A DNA stretch of 30,618 bases from Chloroflexota bacterium (GCA_035764305.1 DASTZM010000633.1:1-30618); one strand, 5' to 3'. Numbered from the stretch's first letter, positions 54 through 13,019 are shown. Numbers and translations are program-made. The notes: a model not told the origin generated them from the letters alone.

Positions 54-107
54 TTCATCGCGCCCTCATGTGCGACTCATGCGGCCCTCATGAAGGCCGC
101 CTACAGT
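54..107 (+). promoter_or_regulatory. Promoter with four 11-bp-period direct repeats (OmpR/PhoB-type operator) and -10 element
   Basis: TTCATC(54), CTCATG(65), CTCATG(76), CTCATG(87), then a 9-bp gap, then TACAGT(102-107). Confidence 0.75.
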
Positions 108-135
108 CCTCCGGTCGCTTGACGCAGGACGTGCG

Positions 136-2100
136 GTGGTAACGGTAAACGCAGACACTGTTCCCCCGCCGCGCCGCCGCAGCCGGCTTCGGCGCTGGCT
201 CCTGGAAGGCCATCCCTCCGAGATGGAGGGCATGTACGAGGAGCTGGAGAGGCACCCCGAGCACCACCAGCACCCATGGTGGCGGGTGATGTGCCTCACC
301 GGGGTCGACTACTTCTCGACGCTCGGTTACCAGCCCGGGATCGCCTTCCTGGCGGCGGGGGTGCTCTCGCCCATCGCAACGGCCATCCTGGTGTTGGTCA
401 CGCTCGTCTGCGCGCTGCCGGTCTACCGGCGCGTCGCAGAGGAGAGCCCGCACGGCGAGGGATCGCTCGCGATGCTGCGCGATCTCCTGTCGTGGTGGCA
501 GGGCAAGCTGGTCGTCCTGGTGCTGCTCGGCTTCGTCGCGACGGCGTTTGTCATCACGATCACGCTGTCGGCGGCGGACGCCGCGGCGCACATCGAGGAG
601 AACCCGCTCGTCGCTCACCTGCTTCACGGCCTGCGTCTGCCGCTGACGCTGCTCCTCATCGCCGCGCTGGGCGCGGTATTCCTGAAGGGCTTTTCCGAAG
701 CGATCGGGATCGCCGTGGTCCTCGTCGCGGCGTACCTAGGGTTGAACCTCGTCGTGATTGCGACCGGGCTGTGGCAGATCGCGCAGGAGCCACAGCACCT
801 GGCCGACTGGCAGCGCGTGCTGACCGTCAGCCACGGGAGCCCCGCGTTGATGGTGGCCGGCGCGCTGCTTGCCTTCCCCAAGCTGGCGCTGGGACTCTCG
901 GGGTTCGAGACGGGTGTGGTGGTCATGCCCCTGGTCCGGGGCGAAGGTGGGGACGACCCGCACAAGCCGGCCGGCCGCATCGCCAACACGCGCAAGCTGC
1001 TGCTGAGCGCGGCACTGATCATGTGCTTCTACCTGGCCGCGAGCAGCCTGGTGACGACGGTCCTGATCCCGGCGGCTGAGTTCGAGCCGGGTGGGGCTGC
1101 CAACGGACGCGCGCTCGCCCACCTCGCGCATGGACTGCTCGGCAGCGTCTTCGGCACGGCGTACGACGTTTCGACGATTCTGATCCTGTGGTTCGCCGGG
1201 TCATCGGCGATGGCGGGGCTGCTGAACATCGTCCCACGCTACCTGCCCAGGTACGGCATGGCGCCCGACTGGACGCTCGCCACCCGGCCGCTGGTGATCG
1301 TCTTCACGCTGATCTGTTTCGTCGTGACGTTCATCTTCCAGGCGCAGGTGGATGCGCAGGCGGGCGCGTATGCCACCGGCGTGCTGGTCTTCATGCTCTC
1401 CGGCGCGTTCGCCGTGACGCTGACCTCGTGGCGCAAGGGCGAGCGCGTCCGCGCGTACGGCTACGGCGCCGCGACGCTGGTGTTCCTCTACGCGACACTG
1501 GTCAACGAGGTAGAGCGCCCCGACGGCGCGCTCATCGCGCTGTGCTTCATCGTGGCGATCGTGTTCATCTCGATCGCGTCACGCATCCAGCGCTCTACCG
1601 AGCTGCGCGCGACGACGATCGTGGTGGACGAGACCGCGCGGCGCTTCATCGAGGAGGTCGCGCACCACGGGCCGATCCGTATCGTGGCCAACCAGCCCGA
1701 CGAGCGCGACTGGCGCGAGTACCTCCTGAAGGAGTGGGAGGAGCGCAACGACCACCACATCCCCCCCGGGGAGCCGATCCTATTCTTCGAGGTGACGATC
1801 ACCGATCCGTCTGAGTTCCAGCACGAGCTGCACGTGAGCGGTGTCGAGGTGGCCGGGTACCGCGTGCTGCGCGCCGGGAGCCCGTCGGTTGCGCACGCCA
1901 TCGCCGCGTTCCTACTCTGGATACGGGACGAGATCGGTCAGGTGCCGCACTGCTACTTTGACTGGACAGAGGGCAGCCCGCTGGCGCACATCGGGCGCTT
2001 CCTGCTCTTCGGCAGCGGCGACATCCCACCTGTCACGCGCGAGATCCTGCGCGGCTGCGAGCCCGACCCCACCGAACGCCCCGTCATCCACGTGAGCTAA
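136..2100 (+). CDS. APC-superfamily permease, KUP/KimA-like (putative K+ or amino-acid transporter)
   Basis: About 12 hydrophobic segments plus a soluble C-terminal domain. TM1 [13 protein letters not shown] keeps the D-x6-Y spacing of KimA/KUP. GTG start with AGGAC 5 nt upstream. Confidence 0.85.
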
Positions 2101-2113
2101 ACGCCGGGCGGCG

Positions 2114-4534
2114 CTACGCCTCCAAGTGGAACGGCACGCTAATCACTGCCGTTCTCGGCCTGAACAGCAGCGCCCCCTTGATCATCAGCGCAGTATGGGT
2201 GTGGAGCAGATGCTCCCACCAGTGCGCCGGGATGAACTCGGGCAGCAGCACCGTCACGATGGCGGTGCCCTCGGGATGGCGACGCTCCACTAGGTCCACG
2301 TAGCGCATCAGCGGCCCCACCAGCGACCGGAACGGCGCCTCGACGACGACAAGCTCCACGCCCGGATCGTACTGCTCCCATTGCTCCTGCAGGTGCTCGG
2401 CCTCGTCGGCGTCGTCGGTGACGTGGATCGCCTGGATGACTGTGTGGCGCGCCGCGGGTGACCGCCCCGGCGAGCCGGGCGCAGGTGTGTTGTCGTACCC
2501 CGTGAGCGACCGCGCGTAGGTGACCGCGCGCAGGGCGGCGCGGTTGAGGGCCGCCACCGGAATCAGCACGTAGTGGTGGACCTTGGGGACCTGCCGGTCG
2601 GGGTGCTCGGTGTTGTCGGTCGGGTCGATCGCCATCTGCGCCGCGACCGCCCGGTAGTGCGATCGGATGGTCAGCAGCAGGGTGACCAGCCCCGGGATGA
2701 GAATCAGCACGACCCACGCGCCGAGCGCGAATTTCGTGATCCCGACGATCACCAGCACGATCGCGGTCGCCGCGGTGCCCACCGCGTTCACGGCGAGACG
2801 CACCCGCCAACCCGGCTCGCGCGTGCGCCACCACCGCGCCACGAGGGCGGCCTGGGAGAGGGTGAACGCGGTGAAGACGCCGATGCCGTAGAGGGGCAGC
2901 AGGCTGGTGACGCTGCCCTGGAACAGGACGATCAGCACAGCGGCGACGACGGCCAGGATGATGATGCCGTTGCTGAATGCGAGGCGCGCGCCCTGGAAAG
3001 CGAAGTGGCTCGGCAGGAACTTGTCGCGTGCCAGGAAGTACGCCAGGCGCGGGAAGTCGGCGAACGCCGTGTTCGCCGCCAGCACGAGCAGCAGCGCGGT
3101 GGAGAACTGCACCAGGTAGTAGTAGGGGCCGATCCCGACCAGCGTGCGCGTGAGCTGGCTGTTCACGGTCTCCACTTCGCTGGGGTCGGGGACGATGTGC
3201 AGCCAGTTGGCGAGAAGACTGATCCCCAGGAAGATCACGGCGAAGCACGCCGCCATCACGACCAGCACCAACCGCGCGTTGCGGTCGGCGGGCTCCTTGA
3301 ACGCCGCCACGCCGTCGGCGATGGCCTCGGTGCCCGTGAGACCGACCGCGCCTGAGGCAAAGGCGCGAAGAATCAGGAACGCGGAGAGCGCTTGCGCACC
3401 GTGGCCGACGTGCCCCGCGACGTTCTCCGGCGGCGCGACGTACGCCGGCGTATCGCCCGTGAGATAGCGGTAGACGCCGAAGCCTAGGAGGCCGAGCATC
3501 GCCGCGAGGTAGACGTAGGCCGGCGCCGCGAAGAGGCTCCCCGACTCGCGCAAGCCGCGCAGGTTGCCCCATGCCATGATGGTCACCGCCAGCACAGCCA
3601 GCAGCACCCGGTTCTCGAACAGGACGGGGAAGGCCGACGTCAGCGCGGCCACGCCCGCGCTGACCGACACCGCCACGGTGAGCACGTAGCCCACCTGGAT
3701 CGACGCGCCGGCGACGAGTCCGGGGATCGTTCCCAGGTTGTCGCTTGTCACGATGTATGACCCACCCCCCTTGGGGTAGGCCTTGATCGTCTGGAGGTAC
3801 GAGATGACGACGATGACGAGCAGCAGGCCGATCGCGATCGCGAGCGGCAGGGTGAGCGAGACCGCGGCGACTCCGGCCGCGACCAGCACACGCATGATCT
3901 CCTCGCTGGCGTACGCGGACGACGAGATGTTGTCCGAACCGAAGACGGCCAGGGCTTGCGTGTTGGAGAGGCGCTCGTGCGCCTCGTTCTCGCTGCGGAT
4001 CGGCGTGCCGATCAGCGCCAGCTTGGCGCGGCGTACGAACTTGGAGAAGCCGCCGCGCGGCGCGGGCTCGGAGCTGATCTCGTACACGCCGGGCTCGAGG
4101 CGCCGCACCCCCTCGAACTTGGGGCGCACGATGCGGAAGGCGCGGTCGCCAGCGTGCAGGGGTCGGGTGCGCTCGCGCCCGGGCGCCAGGATGTCCACGT
4201 GCTCGGGCGCGTGCTCGGCGCTCGCGTCGCCTACTGGAGGCGGTACGGGGAAGGGGGTGTCTGCGGGGAAGCGAGCGCCTGCCGGCGGCGGTGCGGGGGC
4301 CAGCGCCGCCGCCGGCAGGTCCATGGGAGGCTCCTGGCCGTTCGGCCTGACCCCGCCTAGACGCTCCCTTTCGGCTGCGCTGAGCTCCCCGTTTGGTCGG
4401 GGCGCGGGCTCATCGCCAGCGGCTGGCGCCGGCTGTTCGGGCGTGGTCTCCCCCGTGCCGCCGTTACCGCCACCGCCGCCGCTCGAGCGCCGTCTGACGA
4501 CGCGCGGCTTGTCCGCCTCCGGGAGGACCGGCAC
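2114..4534 (-). CDS. kimA: KimA-like K+/H+ symporter (APC family) with long N-terminal extension
   Basis: TM1 SDNISSSAYASEEI resembles KimA SDALSSVAYGTEQI. AYPKGGGSY, LTGTEAI and ANTAFADFPRL motifs; C-terminal domain ending LPEFIPAHWWEHLLH. GTG 4534 lies 6 nt after the -10 TATGCT. Alternative ATG at 4324 has an AGGAG RBS. The ORF-track start at 4786 is unlikely. Confidence 0.85.
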   Translation of the reverse strand: MPVLPEADKPRVVRRRSSGGGGGNGGTGETTPEQPAPAAGDEPAPRPNGELSAAERERLGGVRPNGQEPPMDLPAAALAPAPPPAGARFPADTPFPVPPPVGDASAEHAPEHVDILAPGRERTRPLHAGDRAFRIVRPKFEGVRRLEPGVYEISSEPAPRGGFSKFVRRAKLALIGTPIRSENEAHERLSNTQALAVFGSDNISSSAYASEEIMRVLVAAGVAAVSLTLPLAIAIGLLLVIVVISYLQTIKAYPKGGGSYIVTSDNLGTIPGLVAGASIQVGYVLTVAVSVSAGVAALTSAFPVLFENRVLLAVLAVTIMAWGNLRGLRESGSLFAAPAYVYLAAMLGLLGFGVYRYLTGDTPAYVAPPENVAGHVGHGAQALSAFLILRAFASGAVGLTGTEAIADGVAAFKEPADRNARLVLVVMAACFAVIFLGISLLANWLHIVPDPSEVETVNSQLTRTLVGIGPYYYLVQFSTALLLVLAANTAFADFPRLAYFLARDKFLPSHFAFQGARLAFSNGIIILAVVAAVLIVLFQGSVTSLLPLYGIGVFTAFTLSQAALVARWWRTREPGWRVRLAVNAVGTAATAIVLVIVGITKFALGAWVVLILIPGLVTLLLTIRSHYRAVAAQMAIDPTDNTEHPDRQVPKVHHYVLIPVAALNRAALRAVTYARSLTGYDNTPAPGSPGRSPAARHTVIQAIHVTDDADEAEHLQEQWEQYDPGVELVVVEAPFRSLVGPLMRYVDLVERRHPEGTAIVTVLLPEFIPAHWWEHLLHTHTALMIKGALLFRPRTAVISVPFHLEA

Positions 4535-4540
4535 TTGGGC

Positions 4541-4594
4541 AGCATAGGCGTCCCTTATGAAGGCACGATGAGGCGCACGTGAGTCGCGGATGAA
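4541..4594 (-). promoter_or_regulatory. kimA promoter: four 11-bp-period repeats and -10 element
   Basis: Minus strand TTCATC, CTCACG, CTCATC, TTCATA (4594-4556), a 9-bp gap, then TATGCT (4546-4541). Confidence 0.75.
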
Positions 4595-4941
4595 GTCCGC
4601 AGGGGCCGCACGTCGTTTGCCTCCAGGTAGGCCGCGTAGCCGCCCAGGGCGACCAGGAGTAACGCCAGCTCGGGCCGGCCCCCCACCAGCAGGGTCACCA
4701 CGGCCGTCGCCAGGGACGCCACCGCGGCGACCACCACCACATGCCATGCCCGGCGCCGGTGGTACTTGATCCGCAACGTGAGGCACGTCTCGTGGAAGGT
4801 GCTCGGGCGCCGCAGGAAGAGCACGCGACGGCCGCGCTGATGGGCGGCGGTGACCAGCGCGGCCCGCCCGCCAGCGCCGCCGTCTTCATGTCCCAGGATC
4901 AGGCGTCCGCACTCCTCGCAGCGCGCGTAGTCCCGCAGCAT
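4555..4941 (-). CDS. Small hypothetical membrane protein with CxxC...HxxC putative Zn site and two TM helices
   Basis: MLRDYARCEECG...FHETC, followed by two hydrophobic helices. ATG 4941 lies just downstream of the -10 TACTGT. Confidence 0.6.
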   Translation of the reverse strand: MLRDYARCEECGRLILGHEDGGAGGRAALVTAAHQRGRRVLFLRRPSTFHETCLTLRIKYHRRRAWHVVVVAAVASLATAVVTLLVGGRPELALLLVALGGYAAYLEANDVRPLRTSSATHVRLIVPS

Positions 4942-4953
4942 CCGACCACGTGC

Positions 4954-4985
4954 ACAGTACGCCGCCCACATGAAGGGTCGATGAA
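4954..4985 (-). promoter_or_regulatory. Promoter with two 11-bp-period repeats and -10 element
   Basis: Minus strand TTCATC (4985-4980), TTCATG (4974-4969), a 9-bp gap, then TACTGT (4959-4954). Confidence 0.65.
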
Positions 4986-4993
4986 GCCGTACT

Positions 4994-5047
4994 TTCATGT
5001 CGTCCTAACGACGCGCTCATGGTGGGCTCATAGCGCTCGGGTAGCGT
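4994..5047 (+). promoter_or_regulatory. Promoter with four 11-bp-period repeats and -10 element
   Basis: TTCATG(4994), CTAACG(5005), CTCATG(5016), CTCATA(5027), a 9-bp gap, then TAGCGT(5042-5047). Confidence 0.72.
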
Positions 5048-5058
5048 TCTGCCTTCGA

Positions 5059-5988
5059 GTGGAGGGCGCCGGCGGCGGGCTGTACCTGCGGTTCTGGGGC
5101 ACGCGCGGCTCGATTCCCACTCCGGGCACCGGCACCACGCGTTACGGCGGCAACACCTCGTGCGTCTCGGTGGAGCCGGCCGTCCCCGCGGATGGCGCCG
5201 CACCGGGCACCGAGCTGTTCGTCCTGGACTCGGGATCGGGAATCCGCCTGCTGGGGCTGGACGTGCTGCGCCGGAAGCGACTGCCGCTCACGGCGCACCT
5301 GCTGCTGACGCACACGCACTGGGACCACATCCAGGGCTTCCCCTTCTTCGCCCCGGCGTTCATCCCGGGCAACACCATCACGGTCTACGGCGCGGCGGGC
5401 TCGGATGAAGACCTGGCGGGCGCGCTGGCGGGGCAGATGCTGCACCGCAACTTTCCCGTGAGCCTGCACCAGCTCGGCGCGAGGATCGCCTTCACCACAG
5501 TCGCGCCTGGCGCGCAGCAGATCGGTCCCGCCACGGTGACCAGCGCGCCGCTCAACCATCCTGGCGCCACCGTGGGCTACCGGATCGACCTGGGCGGTCG
5601 GAGCGTCGCGTACGTGACGGACTGTGAGCCCCGCGGAACCGCACCCGCGGCGCCGCCGGACTTCGCAGTGGTGGGGCTGGCCTCCGGGGCGGACGTGCTG
5701 ATCCACGACGCGCAGTACACCGACGACGAGTACCCCGCCAAGATCGGCTGGGGGCACAGCCCCACGAGCTACGTGGTCGACCTGGCGCTCGCCGCCGGTG
5801 TGCGCCGGCTGTACCTCTTCCACCACGATCCGCTGCGCGACGACACGCAGATCGACGCGCTCGTGGAGGCGGCGCGGGCCCGTGCGACGCAGGCGGGTGG
5901 CGATCTCGAGATCGAGGCCGCAGCGGAAGGAACGTCGCTCCACCTGCCGGCGGCCGCCGCGGCGCCGGCGCTGACCGCCGCGGGCTAG
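5059..5988 (+). CDS. MBL-fold metallo-hydrolase (RNase Z / cyclic-nucleotide phosphodiesterase-like)
   Basis: FWGTRGSIPTPG...YGGNTSC N-terminus, THTHWDHIQG (HxHxDH), NHPG, HDAQY, WGHS and HHDP motifs. GTG 5059 chosen because it follows the promoter; the 4741 start overlaps the opposite-strand gene. Confidence 0.85.
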   Translation: MEGAGGGLYLRFWGTRGSIPTPGTGTTRYGGNTSCVSVEPAVPADGAAPGTELFVLDSGSGIRLLGLDVLRRKRLPLTAHLLLTHTHWDHIQGFPFFAPAFIPGNTITVYGAAGSDEDLAGALAGQMLHRNFPVSLHQLGARIAFTTVAPGAQQIGPATVTSAPLNHPGATVGYRIDLGGRSVAYVTDCEPRGTAPAAPPDFAVVGLASGADVLIHDAQYTDDEYPAKIGWGHSPTSYVVDLALAAGVRRLYLFHHDPLRDDTQIDALVEAARARATQAGGDLEIEAAAEGTSLHLPAAAAAPALTAAG

Positions 5989-5998
5989 CGCATCGCGC

Positions 5999-6259
5999 TC
6001 AGGCGCCGAACCTCCAGGCCACACGCCAGCCGCGCGGCACGGGGAGGTGGGCGCGCTGCAGGCGGCATTGCCCGACGTCGTCGACCAAGCACGTCCACTC
6101 GCCGGTGCGCGTCAGACGCATGGCCAGGCGACGCAGCGTGTAGCCGCGCGCCCACGTCAGAAACGCCTCCTCGTCGTCGTCGGAGAGTGGCTCGTCCGGT
6201 GGGAGGCCCTCGCGCAGCGCGTAGGCCTCGCGCAGCTCGGTGGGGAAAGTGATCGCCAC
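5999..6259 (-). CDS. Small hypothetical protein (86 aa)
   Basis: GTG start overlaps the upstream TAG (TAGTG). Protein-like sequence AITFPTELREAYALREGLPPDEPLSDDDEEAFLTWARGY. Confidence 0.55.
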   Translation of the reverse strand: MAITFPTELREAYALREGLPPDEPLSDDDEEAFLTWARGYTLRRLAMRLTRTGEWTCLVDDVGQCRLQRAHLPVPRGWRVAWRFGA

Positions 6260-7149
6260 TAGTGTCCGCCCACGTCTGCACGGCGCGCGCCGCGCTTCGG
6301 TGCGGTGCGGAGCCCGCCCGCGCGCACACCTGCCTTGACGGCCGCCGCTTCCAGGGCGAGCAGCTCCTCGTCGACCAGGTCCATGATCGTCGGGGGGCGG
6401 GTGGCGTTGGCCCATAGGTGCTCGTCCAGTTGTGCCAGCGCCGCCGCCATGCGCTCGGGGCGCTCGCGGGTGACGGACTTGATCGCCGCCAGCGTCAGCT
6501 GGTCCCGTTCACCCGTCCAGAGGCCGCGGTTGTTCACGTCCATGGCGGCTGCCCGCTGCTCGGCCGCCGTCAGCAGACGCTGCACCTCGGCGTCGCCGGC
6601 GTACCACGCCGCGCGCAGCCGCACGAGCTCGATCGCCTGACGGTCGAGAGGCTGGGCCGCGTCCAGCGCCAAGCGCTGCCCGACGTCCAGGATCTGGTAG
6701 GTCAGCATCCGCAGCGCGCCCTGGTCGGTGTTCTTCTCCTTCGGGAGGTCGGAGTAGGTCGCGGTCATCCACAGCGCGCCCAGCGCGAGCCGCCAGAACT
6801 CGGGCGCCGTCCCGGTGCGCCGCCCGTGCGCCTCGACCTCGGCCTGGAGCTGCGCCGCGGCCTCGCGGTAGAACACGCACATCATGTCGGCGTCGTCGAT
6901 CAGCCAGCAGGCACGACCCGCACGGAGCAGGAGCAGGGCGTCTGGCTCGGCGCGGGGCAGGCGCACCAGGTGGTTCTGCGCCTGGCGCAGCGTGTAAAGC
7001 AGCTCCCGTCCCAGCGTGGACGTCGCCGCCCGTCGCCGCTCGGGTATCGGTGGCTCGGCAACGGCGGCGCTCCCCACAAGACGCGGGACCGTGCGCGGCG
7101 CGGCCGGCGCCGCACCGGCCGGCCGCCACGGGCGACTAGGCTGCACCAA
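6259..7149 (-). CDS. Hypothetical helical protein
   Basis: 296-aa ORF with coding-like composition. Overlaps the PilZ gene end by 14 nt and the next gene by 1 nt. No recognisable motif; the start is uncertain. Confidence 0.6.
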   Translation of the reverse strand: MVQPSRPWRPAGAAPAAPRTVPRLVGSAAVAEPPIPERRRAATSTLGRELLYTLRQAQNHLVRLPRAEPDALLLLRAGRACWLIDDADMMCVFYREAAAQLQAEVEAHGRRTGTAPEFWRLALGALWMTATYSDLPKEKNTDQGALRMLTYQILDVGQRLALDAAQPLDRQAIELVRLRAAWYAGDAEVQRLLTAAEQRAAAMDVNNRGLWTGERDQLTLAAIKSVTRERPERMAAALAQLDEHLWANATRPPTIMDLVDEELLALEAAAVKAGVRAGGLRTAPKRGARRADVGGH

Positions 7150-7834
7150 TCCGTCGCTCCTCCGCCTGGTGGCGGTGCACCGCCTTGATCAGGCGCTCGC
7201 GCGTGCGGCGCGCGATCTCGTCCATCTGCAATCCCACGATCCACTTGCCCGACCGGGCGCGGGCCCCGCTGCCCCTCGGTGGCGCCTGCACTCGGCACAT
7301 CTTTGCCTCGCCGATCCCGACGCACTCGCCACCCCCGTAGGGGAGTGGGAAGCGGACCCGCACCCGTGATCCCACCGGCACCTCCTCGTCCGCCAGCAAG
7401 CCGATCCCGCCGCCGCTCATGTCCTGGATCAGCGCGCGCACGGGGCGCCAGTACGCCTCGTCGCGCCCGTCGGAGAGGTCCCAGACAGCGCACTCGGTGG
7501 GGCGGAGCGACAGGTAGATGCGGAAATAGCCGCGCGACTGGCGCTGCCCCACCGCCAGGACGCGCACCACCAGCAGCGGCAGCGGCTGGCTCTGGCGCTG
7601 GAGTACCTCGCTTTCCAGGAACAGCGTCCCACCCCCCGGCGTCGGCACGATCACCTCGATCGGGTCGCCGATGGAAGGGATGACGAACGCACCACGGTGC
7701 GTCGGCATGGCCAGCGTCAGCCGGTCTTCCTGGTAGTCCTCGATCCGGCTCTTGTACTCGCCGTAGCCGTCGGCCGACTCGATCGCGATCTCGCACGTCG
7801 CGCCGATGCGGATCCCCGGCAGGCTGGCGACCAT
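7136..7834 (-). CDS. YcgR/flagellar-brake-like c-di-GMP receptor (YcgR_N + PilZ)
   Basis: PilZ motifs QSRGYFR (RxxxR) and DMSGGG (D/NxSxxG). N-terminal YKSRIEDYQEDRLTLAMP is typical of YcgR_2 domains. Confidence 0.85.
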   Translation of the reverse strand: MVASLPGIRIGATCEIAIESADGYGEYKSRIEDYQEDRLTLAMPTHRGAFVIPSIGDPIEVIVPTPGGGTLFLESEVLQRQSQPLPLLVVRVLAVGQRQSRGYFRIYLSLRPTECAVWDLSDGRDEAYWRPVRALIQDMSGGGIGLLADEEVPVGSRVRVRFPLPYGGGECVGIGEAKMCRVQAPPRGSGARARSGKWIVGLQMDEIARRTRERLIKAVHRHQAEERRIGAA

Positions 7835-7843
7835 CGCCGGGGA

Positions 7844-7897
7844 AGGATAGGTCCGCTAGATGAACCCCACCTAAGCCGTGAATGAAGGGACGATGAG
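7844..7897 (-). promoter_or_regulatory. PilZ-operon promoter: four 11-bp-period repeats and -10 element
   Basis: Minus strand CTCATC, TTCATT, CTTAGG, TTCATC (7897-7859), a 9-bp gap, then TATCCT (7849-7844). Confidence 0.72.
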
Positions 7898-7905
7898 GCC
7901 GGGAT

Positions 7906-7930
7906 CCGGTCCGCACCCCATCCGGACCGG
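7906..7930 (-). terminator. GC-rich hairpin downstream of the DHH gene (possible terminator)
   Basis: CCGGTCCG / CGGACCGG 8-bp stem with 9-nt loop, 5 nt after the stop; no U-tract. Confidence 0.35.
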
Positions 7931-7935
7931 CCGGA

Positions 7936-8826
7936 TCAGCCGTTCGCCTTGAGCGTCTCCAGGATGTCCTTGATGGCATCTTCGGCGACGTCCATCGTCG
8001 GCTGGCACGTACCCGCGCCGCGGTGGCCGCCGCCGCCCCACTTGGCCATCAACTCGCCCACGTTGGTCTTGCAGGTGCGGTTGAAAATGGAATGGCCCAC
8101 CTGGATGGAGATGAACTTCCCCGCCAGCCCGTCCGCGACGCGCATCGAGACGTTGCCCCGCATGTAGATCGTGTAGACCAGGAAGCGGTTGCCGGCGGGC
8201 AGGTTCTTCATCCCGCGCACGTCCATGTAGATCACGTTCTTGTCCAGCTTGGCGACCTGCTCCAGGTGGTGGAGGAACTCGCGGTTCTCCTCGCGCACGC
8301 GGCGCACGCGCTCGGCCACCTCCGGGTCCTGGAGGATCTGGTCGACGGGCTGCTGGCGCCCCAGCGTGATCAGCTTCTGGAAGTAGTCGCGGAACCCGCC
8401 CAGCCCGGTGCGCGGGTCGAGCGTCAGACCGAGGAGGATCCAGCCGTCGGGATGGCGCACCTCGTCCATCGTGAGCTGCGCGGCGTCGAGCTTGTCGGTC
8501 TCGTCGAGCAGTGTGCGGTAATGCTGGAACTTGGGGGACTTGTAGTGATCCGCGATGACGCGCGCCGCGCTCGGCGCGATGGAGTACGCCCCCTTGAACC
8601 CCTCCGGCCGCTCGGCCTCGCTGGCCTGGCTGGAGTGGTGGTCGAACCACATACCGGCGCGCGAGTCGTACGGCAGGTTGGCCAGGATGTCGTTGGAGGT
8701 GATATCGACCTTGCCGTCTTGCACGTCTTTGGGGTGCGCGAGCACCACCTCGTCGATCGGCTCGACCTCGTGCAGCAGGATCGCGCACGTCAGTCCGTCA
8801 AGGTCCCCACGCGTCACCAGTCTCAT
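7936..8826 (-). CDS. DHH-family phosphoesterase (NrnB / 'exopolyphosphatase'-like)
   Basis: N-terminal RGDLDG (DxDG), FDHH, and C-terminal GGGHRGAG (DHHA1). GGGAG RBS. Confidence 0.85.
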   Translation of the reverse strand: MRLVTRGDLDGLTCAILLHEVEPIDEVVLAHPKDVQDGKVDITSNDILANLPYDSRAGMWFDHHSSQASEAERPEGFKGAYSIAPSAARVIADHYKSPKFQHYRTLLDETDKLDAAQLTMDEVRHPDGWILLGLTLDPRTGLGGFRDYFQKLITLGRQQPVDQILQDPEVAERVRRVREENREFLHHLEQVAKLDKNVIYMDVRGMKNLPAGNRFLVYTIYMRGNVSMRVADGLAGKFISIQVGHSIFNRTCKTNVGELMAKWGGGGHRGAGTCQPTMDVAEDAIKDILETLKANG

Positions 8827-8897
8827 GTCATCGCTCCCGTCGGCAGTGCAGTGGCTGTGCTAGGACCCGGAGCGTACGGCACGGCGGGTGGACCTGT

Positions 8898-10154
8898 CTA
8901 CGCTTTAGCCGCCTGCTCTTCTTCCCACCCTGGACGCAGCGGACCGCACACGCGCTCGATCTCGTCCAGGCACTCCTCGAGCAGTGCCACCGCCTTGGGA
9001 TCCAGGTCGCCGCGCTCCATGTCCGCGTGCAGGATGGAGAGCGCTTGCTCGATCGGCATGGCCGGCTTGTAGATCCGCCGCTGGCGCAGGGCGTCGTAGA
9101 TGTCGGCCACCGCCAGCAAACGTCCGCCCAGCGTGATCTCGTCCCCCGACTGGCCAAACGGGTAACCCTTGCCGGACAGCTTCTCGTGGTGCTGCCCGGC
9201 CATGGTGGTGATGTCCTCGTACCCCTCCAGGAACCGGATCTGCTCCAGGATCTCCTTCGTGATCGCGGCGTGGCGCCGGATCTGGGCGAACTCCTCGTCG
9301 TCGAGCTTGCCGTTCTTGTTGAGCACCGCCTCCGGGACGCCGATCTTCCCCACGTCGTGCAGCAGACCGGCGATGCGGATCTTCTCGATCTCGACCGTGG
9401 TCAGCCCCATCCGCTTCGCCAGGATCTCCGCCGACAGCGCGACGCGCTGCGAGTGACCGGCAGTATCGGGATTTCGACGGTCCAGCGTCGTCGCCAGGAC
9501 CTGCACCGTCGAGGTGAACATGTCTTTGGTCTGCTCGACGAGGTAGGCGTTCTGCACCGCAATCGCCGCCGAGGCCGCGATGCTCTCCATGAAGTCCACG
9601 TCTTCGTCGCTAAAGACGGGCCACTCGGTCTCGCCCGCGAGCGGTCGCGTGCCGTCCGCGCGCAGCTTGTTCAGGATCTGGAACACGCCGATAGTCCGCC
9701 CGCCGCCACTCTTCACCGGCATGACCAGCATCGTGCGCGTCAAGTACCCGGTCTGCTGGTCGATCGAGGGGCCAACGCCCTTGGACCAGATCGGGTGGAC
9801 GTAACAGTCGTGCACGTTGAGGATCTCGCCCGTGACCGCCACGTGGCCGGACATTCCCACGCCCATCGGCACGCGAATCTCTTTGATCTCGAGCGCGTTC
9901 GTGGACTTCGTCCACAGCTGGTGGGCGCGCTCATCTACGAGGAAGAAGGTCGTGCGGTCGGCCTGCACCGCAGCGCACGTCTGATCGGCCACCGTCAGCA
10001 GCAGCTGGTCGAGCGTGGGGGCGCTGGCGAAGGAGCGCGTGATCTCCAGCACGGTCTCCTGCTTCGCCAGCTGGCGCTCCAGCTCCGCCAGCCGCCGCTC
10101 CGCGGCAGTGGGAGCATCTAGCACCGGGCTTGCAGGAACGTCCGCCACGATCAT
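8898..10154 (-). CDS. GAF + HD-GYP cyclic dinucleotide phosphodiesterase
   Basis: GAF domain (GMSGHVAVTGEILNV, GVFQILNK). TAGHSQRV, LLHDVGKIG, HHEKLSGKGYP and ADIYDAL motifs intact. Start moved to ATG 10154 because 10181 lies inside the operator. Confidence 0.88.
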   Translation of the reverse strand: MIVADVPASPVLDAPTAAERRLAELERQLAKQETVLEITRSFASAPTLDQLLLTVADQTCAAVQADRTTFFLVDERAHQLWTKSTNALEIKEIRVPMGVGMSGHVAVTGEILNVHDCYVHPIWSKGVGPSIDQQTGYLTRTMLVMPVKSGGGRTIGVFQILNKLRADGTRPLAGETEWPVFSDEDVDFMESIAASAAIAVQNAYLVEQTKDMFTSTVQVLATTLDRRNPDTAGHSQRVALSAEILAKRMGLTTVEIEKIRIAGLLHDVGKIGVPEAVLNKNGKLDDEEFAQIRRHAAITKEILEQIRFLEGYEDITTMAGQHHEKLSGKGYPFGQSGDEITLGGRLLAVADIYDALRQRRIYKPAMPIEQALSILHADMERGDLDPKAVALLEECLDEIERVCGPLRPGWEEEQAAKA

Positions 10155-10164
10155 CGGCACCGCG

Positions 10165-10219
10165 AGGATACGCGCGGGCACATGAACCGCTGGTAAGAGG
10201 TCAATGAAGAGTTGATGAA
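10165..10219 (-). promoter_or_regulatory. HD-GYP promoter: four 11-bp-period repeats and -10 element
   Basis: Minus strand TTCATC, TTCATT, CTTACC, TTCATG (10219-10181), a 10-bp gap, then TATCCT (10170-10165). Confidence 0.72.
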
Positions 10220-10264
10220 GCGGGTGTCAGAGCGGCGATTCCTCGGGTATGCTGCGGCGCAGCC

Positions 10265-11209
10265 ATGGTAGTCGCGGACGCAGCCGCGATTGGTGACATC
10301 ACCGCGCCGCTGGCCCTGGACGCCGCGCTGCTCGCGTCGGTCCCCATCTTCCAAAACCTGTCGCCGCAGGAGCTGGAGCAGCTCGCCGGCGCCAGCCGGC
10401 GGGTTGTGTTTCAGCCCGGGGATGTGCTCGTGCGCAAAGGGGAGCTGGGGGAGGGCGTCTACATCATCCTCGAGGGGCGGGTCGAAGTGCTGGCCAACGA
10501 GGCGGTGGTGTCCTGGCTGATCGCCGGCGACACGGTGGGGGACATGTCGCTGTTCGATGGCCGGCCCCGCTCCGCGACGTGCGTCGCGCTCGCGCCCACG
10601 ACCTGCCTGAGGCTGGACCGCGACGCGTTCCTGAGCGCGGCGCAGCGCAACTGGAGCATGACGCTCAGGCTGTTTTCGGTGCTGGCCGGCCGCATCCGCC
10701 AGGCGGACGAGCTGCTGGCGGACCACGCGCGCGACCCGCTGACCGGCGTCAACAACCGGCGTGCGCTGCTCGACCTCTACCAGCGTGAGGCCAACCGCAC
10801 GCAGCGCGCCGCGCGTCAGGGCTCCGACCACGCTCTCAACCCATTGGCCGTCGTGTTCTGCGACGTGGACAGGTTCAAGAGTATCAACGACACGTACGGG
10901 CACCACGTCGGCGACCAGGTGCTGATCGCCGTAGCGCAACTGCTCACGCAGGCTGGGCGCACGACCGACTTCGTGGCGCGCTACGGCGGCGATGAGTTCG
11001 TCATGCTCCTGCCCGACGCCGGGCAGACCGGGGCCGACGCCGTGATGCGGCGCATCAAGGATCTCGTCGAAACGAACCGGCCGGGTCCCGTCCCGTTCAC
11101 GATCAGCCTCGGCGCGGCGGTGGTCGACCCGCTCAACCCGCCGCCGTATGAAGAAGTGATAGCGGCGGCAGACGCCGAGATGTACCGCGACAAGGCGCGC
11201 ACGCGGTGA
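10265..11209 (+). CDS. cNMP-binding domain + GGDEF diguanylate cyclase
   Basis: cNMP cassette [14 protein letters not shown]; DPLTG; [18 protein letters not shown]; I-site RTTD; intact RYGGDEF. -10-like TATGCT at 10248-10253. Confidence 0.9.
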
Positions 11210-11298
11210 GCACCTCCTTCCCCGCCACCGCGGCGCATGCTGCCCCGCAGCCCGCCTTGGAGCATGTCGCGCAGCCCTCCGTACAGTATGGAGAAGCG

Positions 11299-12006
11299 AT
11301 GAAGACGCGCGTCCTGGTCGTCGAGGATGACCCGAAGGTGCTCAGCGCGCTGCGCCGCGGGCTCGCACTGGAGGGCTATGAGGTCGAGGCGGCGGAGGAT
11401 GGTCCGGCCGCGCTGAAGCTCGCCGCCGAGCGCCCGCCGGACGTCGCGATTCTGGACGTGATGCTCCCCGGCATGAGCGGCTTGGAGGTGTGCGACCGGC
11501 TGCGGCGCGGCGTGCTGCAGAACGGGCAGGGGAGCACGCCCGCCGCGTTTCCGATCCTCCTGCTCACTGCGCGCGACACCGTCCAGGACCGCGTGGCCGG
11601 GCTCGATCGAGGCGCCGACGACTACTTGGTCAAGCCCTTCGCATTCGATGAGCTGCTGGCGCGGCTGCGCGCGCTACTGCGCCGCGCCCACCCCGCGGGC
11701 CGCGACGAGCACCTGCGCTACGCCGACCTGGAGCTCTCCCCCGCCACGCGCGAAGCCTGGCGGAGCGGCGATGCGCTGACGCTGACCGCGCGAGAATTCG
11801 ACCTGCTGGAGTTCTTCCTGCGCTACCCGCGCCGCGTGCTGACTCGCGCGCGCATCCTGGAGCAGGTGTGGGGCTACGACTACCTCGGTGGCTCTAACGT
11901 GATCGACGTGTACGTCCGCGTGCTGCGTGAGAAACTCGAGGTATCGGGCAAGCCCCGACTGATCCAGACCGTGCGCGGCGTCGGCTACGCCCTCCGGGAG
12001 TCCTAG
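11299..12006 (+). CDS. OmpR/PhoB-family response regulator (MprA-like)
   Basis: Receiver domain (VEDD, ILDVMLP, LTAR, KPF) plus winged helix ([36 protein letters not shown]). GGAGA precedes ATG 11299. Confidence 0.92.
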
Positions 12007-12047
12007 ACGCTTCACTGCGTCGCGCCGCGCCCCCTATAACGTCGCCC

Positions 12048-13019
12048 ATGCGCAACGCGCGCGCGCGCTACGTCCTCGGCGTCGCCGCCGGCGTGACCAT
12101 CCTCTACACCGCGTTCGTGCTGGCCAACACGGTCCTGGTGGGGCCGGTGAGCGTCGTGCCGCTCCCCTGGCTGTCGGAGTGGCTGTACATGCAGGATGCG
12201 CTGGACATCGTGGCCGCCGCACTGCTGATCGCCACCGGCGCCGCGCTGCTCAACCGCCTCCTTGCGCGTGACGAGGCGCTGCGCCGCGCGACGCTGGAGA
12301 ACGAGGCGCGCATCGAGGCGCAGCGCCGGCTGCTGGCGGACACGTCGCACGAGCTGCGAAACCCGCTCACCGTGCTGCGCGCCAACCTCACGGTGCTGCA
12401 GCGCGAGGACGCCGACCCCCAGCTGCGGATGGAGGCGACGCGCGACGCGGAGGAGGAGGCAGCGCGCCTCGGCCGTCTGGTGGACGACCTGCTGCTGCTC
12501 GCGCGGGGCGAGTCGGGCGAGCAGCTCGTGCGACGTCCGGTGAGACTGGACGAGCTGATGGCGGAGGTGGCCGGAGAGGCGCAGGAGGCTGGCACGGGCC
12601 ACCTGATCCGCGTCGACGCCGCGATCCCGGTGACGATCAGCGCCGACGCGGAGCGGCTGCGCCAGGTCCTGCGGAACGTGCTGGGCAACGCGCTGCGCCA
12701 CACGCCTGCCCAGACGCACGTCTCGCTGTCGCTCGCTCAGCGGCGCGACGAGGTCGAGCTGACCGTAGCCGACGATGGGCCCGGCATCGCGCCGGAGCAT
12801 CTGCCACGCGTGTTCGATCGCTTCTACCGCGTCGACGATTCGCGCACGCGCGCGACGCTGCGCGACGGCGGTTCGGGTGGGGCTGGCCTCGGCTTGGCGA
12901 TCGTGAAGCACGTGGTCGAGGCGCACGGCGGCTCGGTCGAGATCGAGTCGGCTCTCGGGTGGGGCACGCGCGTCGCCATCCGGCTCCCGGTCACACCGCC
13001 GGCCGCGCGCCCGGCCTGA
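12048..13019 (+). CDS. Sensor histidine kinase with two TM helices, short loop and no evident HAMP domain
   Basis: H-box SHELRNPL, N-box NVLGNALRH, G1 DDGPGI, F-box VFDRFYR, G2 GAGLGLAI. Confidence 0.9.
   Translation: MRNARARYVLGVAAGVTILYTAFVLANTVLVGPVSVVPLPWLSEWLYMQDALDIVAAALLIATGAALLNRLLARDEALRRATLENEARIEAQRRLLADTSHELRNPLTVLRANLTVLQREDADPQLRMEATRDAEEEAARLGRLVDDLLLLARGESGEQLVRRPVRLDELMAEVAGEAQEAGTGHLIRVDAAIPVTISADAERLRQVLRNVLGNALRHTPAQTHVSLSLAQRRDEVELTVADDGPGIAPEHLPRVFDRFYRVDDSRTRATLRDGGSGGAGLGLAIVKHVVEAHGGSVEIESALGWGTRVAIRLPVTPPAARPA

Follow-up and report, generated by a model that had tools for sequence, protein, structure and literature searches.

Response regulators of the OmpR/PhoB family that activate transcription share a hallmark: they bind head-to-tail repeats with an 11-bp period over the -35 region, at a fixed distance from the -10 box. 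Several operators of the family are known by their repeat words, among them the cre tag of CreB (TTCAC-N6-TTCAC), the tor boxes of TorR (CTGTTCATAT), the HssR operator (GTTCATATT-N2-GTTCATATT), and the direct-repeat MprA box of Mycobacterium tuberculosis (TCTCAGGG). In this study, we describe six arrays of the word YTCAT, repeated every 11 bp, in a 30,618-nucleotide stretch of DNA from a Chloroflexota bacterium (GCA_035764305.1, DASTZM010000633.1), hereafter the window. We conclude that these arrays probably serve as operators for a response regulator of the OmpR/PhoB family, the best candidate being the one predicted at 11299-12006 of the same stretch. The window is the whole of contig C633 of a 4.54-Mb draft genome (G000; 833 contigs, 76% complete, 70% G+C). 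The sequencing runs listed as containing its sequence are DNA runs from soil, with no RNA run among them, and the host is an uncultured soil bacterium. A search of the literature for such a YTCAT regulon found no description.

The Pho box consists of 11-nt direct repeat units that are bound in tandem by PhoB, which contacts sigma-70 (PMC4415409). In the phoA promoter of Escherichia coli, CTGTCATAAAGTTGTCAC is followed by 10 bp and the box TATAGT, and the TCA core lies 11 bp from this -10 box. The E. coli Pho box (CTGTCAT-N4-CTGTCAT) resembles the window arrays in its 11-bp head-to-tail units, its TCAT core, the distance of 11 bp between TCA and the -10 box, and the lack of a -35 box. Likewise, its units come in multiples of two and its regulator combines a receiver with a winged helix. 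The window arrays differ from it in the base 5' of TCAT, which is C or T rather than G, and in their targets, which are not phosphate genes. Judged by their sequence, the window promoters fit the Pho-box type (class II), in which the operator takes the place of the -35 box and stands at a constant phase relative to the -10 box, as in phoA.

Six YTCAT arrays with a fixed phase to the -10 box

The arrays are listed here with their hexamers in order from the distal to the proximal end.

54-107 (+): array 1, hexamers within 54-92 at 54-59 (TTCATC), 65-70 (CTCATG), 76-81 (CTCATG) and 87-92 (CTCATG); 9-bp spacer; -10 box TACAGT at 102-107; promoter of the APC-family transporter gene (APC1).
4541-4594 (-): array 2, hexamers within 4556-4594 at 4589-4594 (TTCATC), 4578-4583 (CTCACG), 4567-4572 (CTCATC) and 4556-4561 (TTCATA); 9-bp spacer; -10 box TATGCT at 4541-4546; promoter of the KimA homologue.
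4954-4985 (-): array 3, two units within 4969-4985 at 4980-4985 (TTCATC) and 4969-4974 (TTCATG); 9-bp spacer; -10 box TACTGT at 4954-4959; back to back with array 4, precedes the small membrane protein gene.
4994-5047 (+): array 4, hexamers within 4994-5032 at 4994-4999 (TTCATG), 5005-5010 (CTAACG, degenerate), 5016-5021 (CTCATG) and 5027-5032 (CTCATA); 9-bp spacer; -10 box TAGCGT at 5042-5047; promoter of the MBL-fold hydrolase.
7844-7897 (-): array 5, hexamers within 7859-7897 at 7892-7897 (CTCATC), 7881-7886 (TTCATT), 7870-7875 (CTTAGG, degenerate) and 7859-7864 (TTCATC); 9-bp spacer; -10 box TATCCT at 7844-7849; promoter of the PilZ operon.
10165-10219 (-): array 6, hexamers within 10181-10219 at 10214-10219 (TTCATC), 10203-10208 (TTCATT), 10192-10197 (CTTACC, degenerate) and 10181-10186 (TTCATG); 10-bp spacer; -10 box TATCCT at 10165-10170; promoter of the HD-GYP gene, in the intergenic region shared with a divergent two-component operon.

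The unit reads (C/T)TCAT(G/C) and is present four times in five of the six arrays and twice in the remaining one (array 3). Its period is exactly 11 bp in all six, as it is in seven arrays from relatives of the host, and the proximal hexamer ends 9 bp before a TANNNT box at five promoters and 10 bp before it at array 6. Over the 22 units the consensus is SSC-YTCAT-S, with the bases of the TCAT core conserved in 22/22 (T), 19/22 (C), 22/22 (A) and 18/22 (T) units. The proximal unit is good in every array. At the PilZ and HD-GYP promoters the degenerate unit stands near -35.5, a position that is also weak in two arrays of the relative G007, and at the MBL promoter it is the second unit counting from the distal end. 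A preliminary description of this DNA had reported six YTCAY arrays of 11-bp period at these coordinates and on these strands, each ending 9 bp (10 bp once) ahead of a TANNNT hexamer, and our reading of the sequence agrees exactly on both counts.

The arrays occur in clear excess over chance. The two-unit-plus-box pattern YTCAT-N6-YTCAT-N10-TANNNT has four matches in the window against a mean of 0.00 over 100 dinucleotide-preserving shuffles; across the 4.54-Mb assembly it has four matches, all inside the window, and the reversed pattern has none. When the scores of a position weight matrix (PWM) for the unit were summed across four units, five arrays in the whole genome reached 28 bits or more at period 11, every one of them in the window, against none at the control periods 8, 10, 12, 13 and 14 and one at period 9. 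The scan by PWM and -10 spacing that the preliminary description had proposed leaves the strong matches confined to the window, and its proviso that shuffled sequence might hold the motif equally often was not borne out. A relaxed two-unit search of the genome added one weak candidate only (C369:4966). This site (C369 4966-4997, locus L294) reads CTCAC-N6-TTCAT, with TACCCT after another 10 bp; an ATG 16 nt beyond this box begins the reading frame of a 207-aa protein without a family match.

All six arrays are positioned upstream of start codons. At five of the six promoters no hexamer placed 16-18 bp from the -10 box agrees with TTGACA in more than two of six positions, and in the absence of a usable -35 hexamer these promoters would be expected to be weak without an activator. 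The -10 box lies 6 nt from the start codon of the KimA homologue, 12 nt from that of the small membrane protein, 11 nt from that of the MBL hydrolase, 9 nt from that of the PilZ operon and 10 nt from that of the HD-GYP gene; the first transporter has a longer gap, of 28 nt. We infer transcription start sites near 114, 4534, 4947, 5054, 7837 and 10158 at the six promoters, and five of the six promoters are predicted to be leaderless. Genome-wide, TANNNT hexamers peak 12-18 nt ahead of predicted starts, with counts of 44-107 at each position except one (31), the background being about 5-10, which points to leaderless transcription as frequent, or normal, in the G000 lineage. Boxes at these distances precede roughly 13% of the predicted start codons in G000. 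An Rfam scan of the entire window returned no family at gathering score, and control of KimA by a riboswitch, in the Bacillus manner, was rejected on this ground.

The candidate regulator and its competitors

Divergently from array 6 lies an operon that encodes a complete two-component system.

10248-13019 (+): regulator operon, with -10 box TATGCT at 10248-10253; divergent from array 6 and the HD-GYP gene.
10265-11209 (+): GGDEF cyclase with a cyclic nucleotide monophosphate (cNMP)-binding domain (Pfam).
11299-12006 (+): OmpR-family response regulator (Pfam Response_reg, 2.2e-28; Trans_reg_C, 1.4e-26).
12048-13019 (+): histidine kinase of 323 aa, with two N-terminal transmembrane helices, a loop of ~18 aa, no HAMP domain, an intact H-box, and HisKA and HATPase_c domains.

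The regulator and kinase are encoded about 1 kb from the nearest array. In the regulator, the context of the acceptor Asp is conserved and the LDVMLPG, TARD and KPF motifs align. Its nearest solved relatives are PrrA, PhoP, RegX3 and MtrA, and it scores below every NCBIfam equivalog cut-off (PhoB, NblR, CopR-type, MtrA, CreB and KdpE). Metagenome regulators that are encoded beside TTCAT arrays on unrelated contigs have in common with it the recognition-helix motif N(I/V)(V/I)DVY(V/I)R-LR, whereas the G000 paralogue beside arrays of another word, CTCAG, carries NVLEVYVKQLR instead. This resemblance would agree with the local regulator as the YTCAT binder. Compared with its orthologue in G007 (L037 1198-2409), the kinase is without a linker/HAMP segment of ~80 residues; conservation is good in both membrane helices and in the short loop.

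Relatives were compared by regulator protein across the order (23 genomes), and the kinase sensor also against a sample of 400 genomes of the phylum. The regulator has one orthologue at 79% identity (G007:C63) and a sister clade at 65-66% (a second pair on G007:C63, and G006:C248), the rest being at most 58% identical. The kinase sensor region was found in G000, G006 and G007 only, with 68% identity in the G007 kinase; the phylum sample gave three weak matches and nothing else. On G007:C63 (locus L037), four-unit arrays flank the regulator-kinase operon, one just downstream of the kinase and one against the regulator start codon. One of them precedes a small open reading frame (ORF) and a double-zinc-ribbon Ion_trans channel, the other a 149-aa ORF and a cNMP-binding membrane protein. 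Elsewhere on this contig, sites are found ahead of a small ORF or structured RNA and ahead of an operon with a GAF-PAS adenylate cyclase and a homologous MBL gene; on G007:C408, an array lies ahead of a MotB-like gene. On G006:C248, arrays lie on either side of a paralogous regulator-kinase pair (regulator 65% identical): an array of five units, with TACAGT as its box after a 9-bp spacer, adjoins the regulator, upstream of a PilZNR+PilZ gene, and a second array lies 3' of the kinase, ahead of a DUF1538 gene. The KimA homologue of this contig, 81% identical, stands at the contig end, where its promoter region is cut off. The soil-metagenome contig L146, finally, encodes an APC1 orthologue (83% identical) in front of which four YTCAT cores, the 9-bp spacer and a TACATT box are retained; the sequence between the cores has diverged.

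A search with the pattern of units 1, 2 and 4 found promoter-type arrays in G006 and G007, irregular repeats in G003 and G005, and none in G001 or ten other relatives; in the ten searched relatives without the sensor domain no arrays were found. Pattern matches in genus g5 (G004, G011 and G012) fall at one common site within a 514-aa coding frame and were discarded as false positives. Since the searched relatives are kin of G000, the coincidence of array and system is suggestive rather than a statistical test. A broad search of genome contigs with the regulator protein returned only paralogues of at most 57% identity, from many phyla, and 1.38 Mb of flanking sequence held no YTCAT arrays and only a few of a TTTAAT type. 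The preliminary description had read the arrays as sites of the OmpR/PhoB family, a reading that gains from the phoA phase, the local regulator-kinase pair, the flanking arrays in two other genera and the absence of arrays from the ten relatives without the sensor. It had also allowed that the arrays might lack conservation in relatives; they recur in G006, G007 and L146, but most target genes are not shared across genera.

Two sites on L037 deserve separate mention. At 11334-11400, a hybrid promoter combines two distal YTCAT units with two proximal CTCAG units, followed by 9 bp and TAGAGC, and then by a 125-aa ORF, the GAF-PAS adenylate cyclase and the MBL hydrolase; two regulators may act jointly here. 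At 5198-5600, no normal gene follows a two-unit array with TATGCT; downstream of the array lie instead a G+C-rich hairpin region, a 29-aa ORF and a clear terminator hairpin, and this segment may represent a small protein or small RNA under the same control.

A three-unit pattern scan of metagenomes found at least 80 loci. Among the matches listed, most were unrelated TTCAT operators and AT-rich chance matches, the AT-rich ones resembling HssR-type GTTCATA arrays, and none carried the window's target genes, generic regulator-kinase pairs aside. On many mid- to high-G+C contigs in the series L168-L247 (e.g., L221, L196, L247, L224 and L209), an inverted pair, ATGAR-N6/7-YTCAT, is followed by a further two YTCAT units in direct orientation and, 10 bp later, by TANNNT. 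Among the matches listed, this architecture often lies directly ahead of a gene for an OmpR-family regulator and represents an autoregulated type of operator that is widespread.

The assignment of the arrays to the local regulator was complicated by several observations that weigh against it. TTCAY half-sites serve several unrelated OmpR-family regulators, CreB, TorR and HssR, and the word itself is therefore not distinctive. No forward array precedes the regulator operon in G000, where array 6 lies on the opposite strand, 28-66 bp upstream of the operon's -10 box. KimA homologues in G007, G005 and G001 are without YTCAT arrays, and targets differ between genera except for APC1 (L146) and PilZ (G006), G007 having an ion channel, a cNMP-binding membrane protein, MotB and an adenylate cyclase. 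In G005, a two-unit YTCAT site lies ahead of a regulator that is only 55% identical, and the half-site is therefore not unique to one clade. A different OmpR-family regulator, encoded elsewhere in the genome and possibly in its unassembled part, might bind the arrays, although we regard this as unlikely. In its favor, the genome encodes at least seven paralogues of the OmpR family (E < 1e-40), an assembly that is 76% complete may lack other regulators or targets, the G005 pair precedes a regulator outside the clade, and TTCAT arrays adjoin many different regulators among the metagenome matches listed. However, the assembly contains no member of the array-associated clade other than the local regulator, the paralogue that comes next (53% identical) adjoins CTCAG arrays and has a different recognition helix, and adjacency of arrays to this regulator clade recurs in three genera. 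From these sequence relations we infer that the local regulator binds the arrays, and from the absence of a -35 box that it activates.

The CTCAG-core arrays, again of four units at 11 bp, lie in G000 on C748 (~806 and ~4965, minus strand), C136 (~402), C335 (~1384) and C681 (~3557) (loci L291-L293), with TANNNT-like boxes following. On C748, they flank the OmpR-family regulator-kinase pair that is 53% identical and precede a heavy-metal-associated (HMA) gene; the MprA-box-like word of this family probably marks a regulon for copper or heavy metals. MprA resembles the window system in belonging to the OmpR family and in its 11-bp direct repeats; the window arrays read YTCAT, whereas the arrays of four CTCAG units sit on other contigs. 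The comparison of the window system to MprA in a companion to the preliminary description does not fit, as the CTCAG arrays adjoin another regulator paralogue and the HMA gene.

Repression by a bound regulator that occludes the -35 region appears quite improbable. The arrays do overlap the region that RNA polymerase needs, and one G007 array overlaps its regulator's own start codon, suggesting negative autoregulation there. Yet five of the six window promoters lack a usable -35 hexamer, and this absence favors activation over repression. In addition, the phase to the -10 box is identical to that of the PhoB-activated phoA promoter, and the fixed 9-bp spacing is a geometry that activation requires.

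There is very little to be said for the arrays being the host's Pho boxes and the adjacent system its PhoR-PhoB. The geometry is that of a Pho box and the top NCBIfam matches are indeed PhoB (219 bits) and PhoR (205 bits), but both scores fall below the curated cut-offs of 296 and 334, and no phosphate-related gene lies behind the YTCAT arrays. Moreover, the pstS promoter (C708 835-878, L289), directly after a histidine kinase gene, has its own array of GTTAAT, GATAAT, CTTAAG and GCTAAA at 11-bp spacing, without YTCAT units, and the reading as a Pho regulon was rejected because this array contradicts it. The TTAAT-type array is likely to be the Pho box of the G000 host; its core resembles cyanobacterial and Bacteroidota TTAA-type boxes, and a PhoU gene was looked for in the assembly and not found. 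With pstS carrying its own TTAAT array, and CTCAG arrays lying at another regulator, the YTCAT arrays are therefore neither Pho boxes nor MprA-type boxes.

The KdpD/KdpE system offers another likeness, being an OmpR-family two-component system with direct repeats at a K+ uptake gene, and KimA or APC1 homologues of relatives adjoin KdpE-like or KdpD-like (DUF4118-GAF) systems. In G005, for instance, two KimA paralogues (L299 = G005:C313; L301 = G005:C236) lie behind KdpE-like regulators, with (C/G)TTGAGC direct repeats at 11-bp spacing upstream; two-component control of KimA therefore recurs with another regulator and another word. The window system differs from KdpDE in that its kinase is without the KdpD, Usp and DUF4118 modules, its target is KimA rather than kdpFABC, and c-di-GMP (cyclic di-GMP) genes are included. 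As the kinase has only HisKA and HATPase_c behind two transmembrane helices and the regulator reaches 138 of the 325 bits that the KdpE model requires, we do not assign it to KdpDE. The CreB, TorR and HssR operators share the half-site word and the 11-bp direct-repeat logic with the window arrays; the window differs in having no cre, tor or hrt genes, and its small two-helix membrane kinase is unrelated. Membership of CreBC was likewise rejected, with scores of 163 bits against 273 for CreB and 142.5 against 356 for CreC and with unrelated genes despite the similar half-site.

That the repeats arose by chance or have no regulatory role, as remnants of a mobile element for example, is hardly conceivable; nothing was found in favor of this reading, and it was excluded by the sequence statistics, given the empty shuffles and reversed controls, the fixed -10 spacing, cores conserved while spacers and flanks differ, and the position of all six arrays ahead of start codons.

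Genes behind the arrays

The genes downstream of the arrays are as follows.

136-2100 (+): APC1, transporter of the APC superfamily (654 aa), convergent with the KimA homologue; GTG start at 136, conserved in L146.
2114-4534 (-): homologue of the KimA-type K+ transporter, with an N-terminal extension of ~170 aa; GTG start; Pfam AA_permease_2.
4555-4941 (-): small membrane protein (128 aa); CxxC motif, pair of hydrophobic helices at the C terminus; ATG start.
5059-5988 (+): MBL-fold hydrolase (Pfam Lactamase_B_2); GTG start.
5999-7834 (-): PilZ operon, encoding a YcgR-like PilZNR+PilZ protein (7136-7834, Pfam) and two proteins without assigned function, of 272 aa (6259-7077) and 86 aa (5999-6259).
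7936-8826 (-): DHH/NrnA-like protein, from language-model features and predicted structure; follows the HD-GYP gene.
8898-10154 (-): GAF and HD-GYP phosphodiesterase (Pfam HD_5, HD and GAF); ATG start.

By sequence comparison, the gene at 2114-4534 encodes a true, full-length homologue of KimA (phmmer E = 2.6e-127 to Bacillus subtilis KimA, 6S3K), residues 171-804 aligning with KimA 6-605, and K+ transport is predicted for it. APC1 is related to this neighbor only distantly (26% identity, BLASTP 2e-8, hhalign probability 94.5%). It has no match in Pfam, NCBIfam or PDB sequences, also when a 22-sequence profile was run against PDB, and it was looked for in five relatives and not found. Its family is large and labelled "amino acid transporter" in the sources, and the members are mostly from Chloroflexota, the phylum of its closest named homologues. 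A 68% identical APC1 orthologue from a JGI metagenome (P0008) follows the genes of a KdpD-like kinase (DUF4118-GAF-HisKA) and of an OmpR-family regulator, a neighborhood that hints at a K+-related role for this uncharacterized family.

The small 128-aa protein has no family match in searches of the Pfam/NCBIfam type, and for the MBL hydrolase NCBIfam gives weak matches to RNase Z and cyclic-nucleotide phosphodiesterase, all below cut-off. The protein encoded at 7936-8826 matches NanoRNase/pAp phosphatase and "exopolyphosphatase-related" clusters with TM-scores of 0.94-0.97, and the HD-GYP and NrnA-like proteins (7936-10154) are likely to form a c-di-GMP breakdown pair.

The preliminary description had placed two KUP/KimA transporters, a Zn-finger membrane protein, the MBL hydrolase, the PilZ operon and the HD-GYP gene behind the arrays. 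Most of this holds, including KimA as the second transporter, but "KUP/KimA" is too specific for the gene at 136-2100 because this is only a distant APC relative of KimA. Its proposal that one regulator co-activates K+ uptake and cyclic-dinucleotide genes is supported as well, with the reservation that "K+ uptake" rests on one clear KimA homologue and that targets mostly differ between genera.

Proposed mechanism and meaning

Taking the local regulator as the probable activator, the following sequence of events may be envisaged. The kinase at 12048-13019 would sense something in or at the membrane, as is probable for a protein with two membrane helices and almost no external loop, and would phosphorylate the regulator. 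Phosphorylated regulator would then bind head-to-tail, with one winged helix per 11-bp unit, so that four units would hold two dimers and the two units at 4969-4985 one. With units centered near -24.5, -35.5, -46.5 and -57.5, it would occupy the place of the -35 box and recruit RNA polymerase to promoters that have only TANNNT, much as at a Pho box. The outcome would be co-induction of mostly leaderless mRNAs for the KimA-type K+ importer, the distant APC transporter, the small membrane protein, the MBL hydrolase, the YcgR-like PilZ operon and the HD-GYP and NrnA-like proteins.

As to the function of this regulon, we offer only a tentative picture, which is possible rather than probable. The window may be a self-contained island, present in few genera, in which an intramembrane-sensing kinase reports the state of the membrane or its ions (e.g., K+ or membrane potential). 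The regulator would raise K+ import, clear c-di-GMP through the HD-GYP and NrnA-like pair and supply a YcgR-like flagellar brake, and the co-transcribed cNMP-gated diguanylate cyclase would oppose it. If this is true, a hard-wired circuit would join cAMP/cGMP, c-di-GMP, K+ homeostasis and motility; in G007, arrays precede MotB, adenylate cyclase and cNMP-binding genes.

In summary, this is a known kind of switch in a new regulon, with no new mechanism. The YTCAT, CTCAG and TTAAT arrays represent three words of one architecture in one genome, hence three matched regulator-operator pairs, which could be used to study how changes in the recognition helix redirect OmpR-family proteins. For the organism, the arrays make a regulon readable in an uncultured lineage, where a compact neighborhood of K+ transport and second-messenger genes appears to answer to a single small membrane kinase and a single regulator. 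The value of the finding lies in this annotation and in the testable link that it provides between K+ uptake and c-di-GMP turnover.

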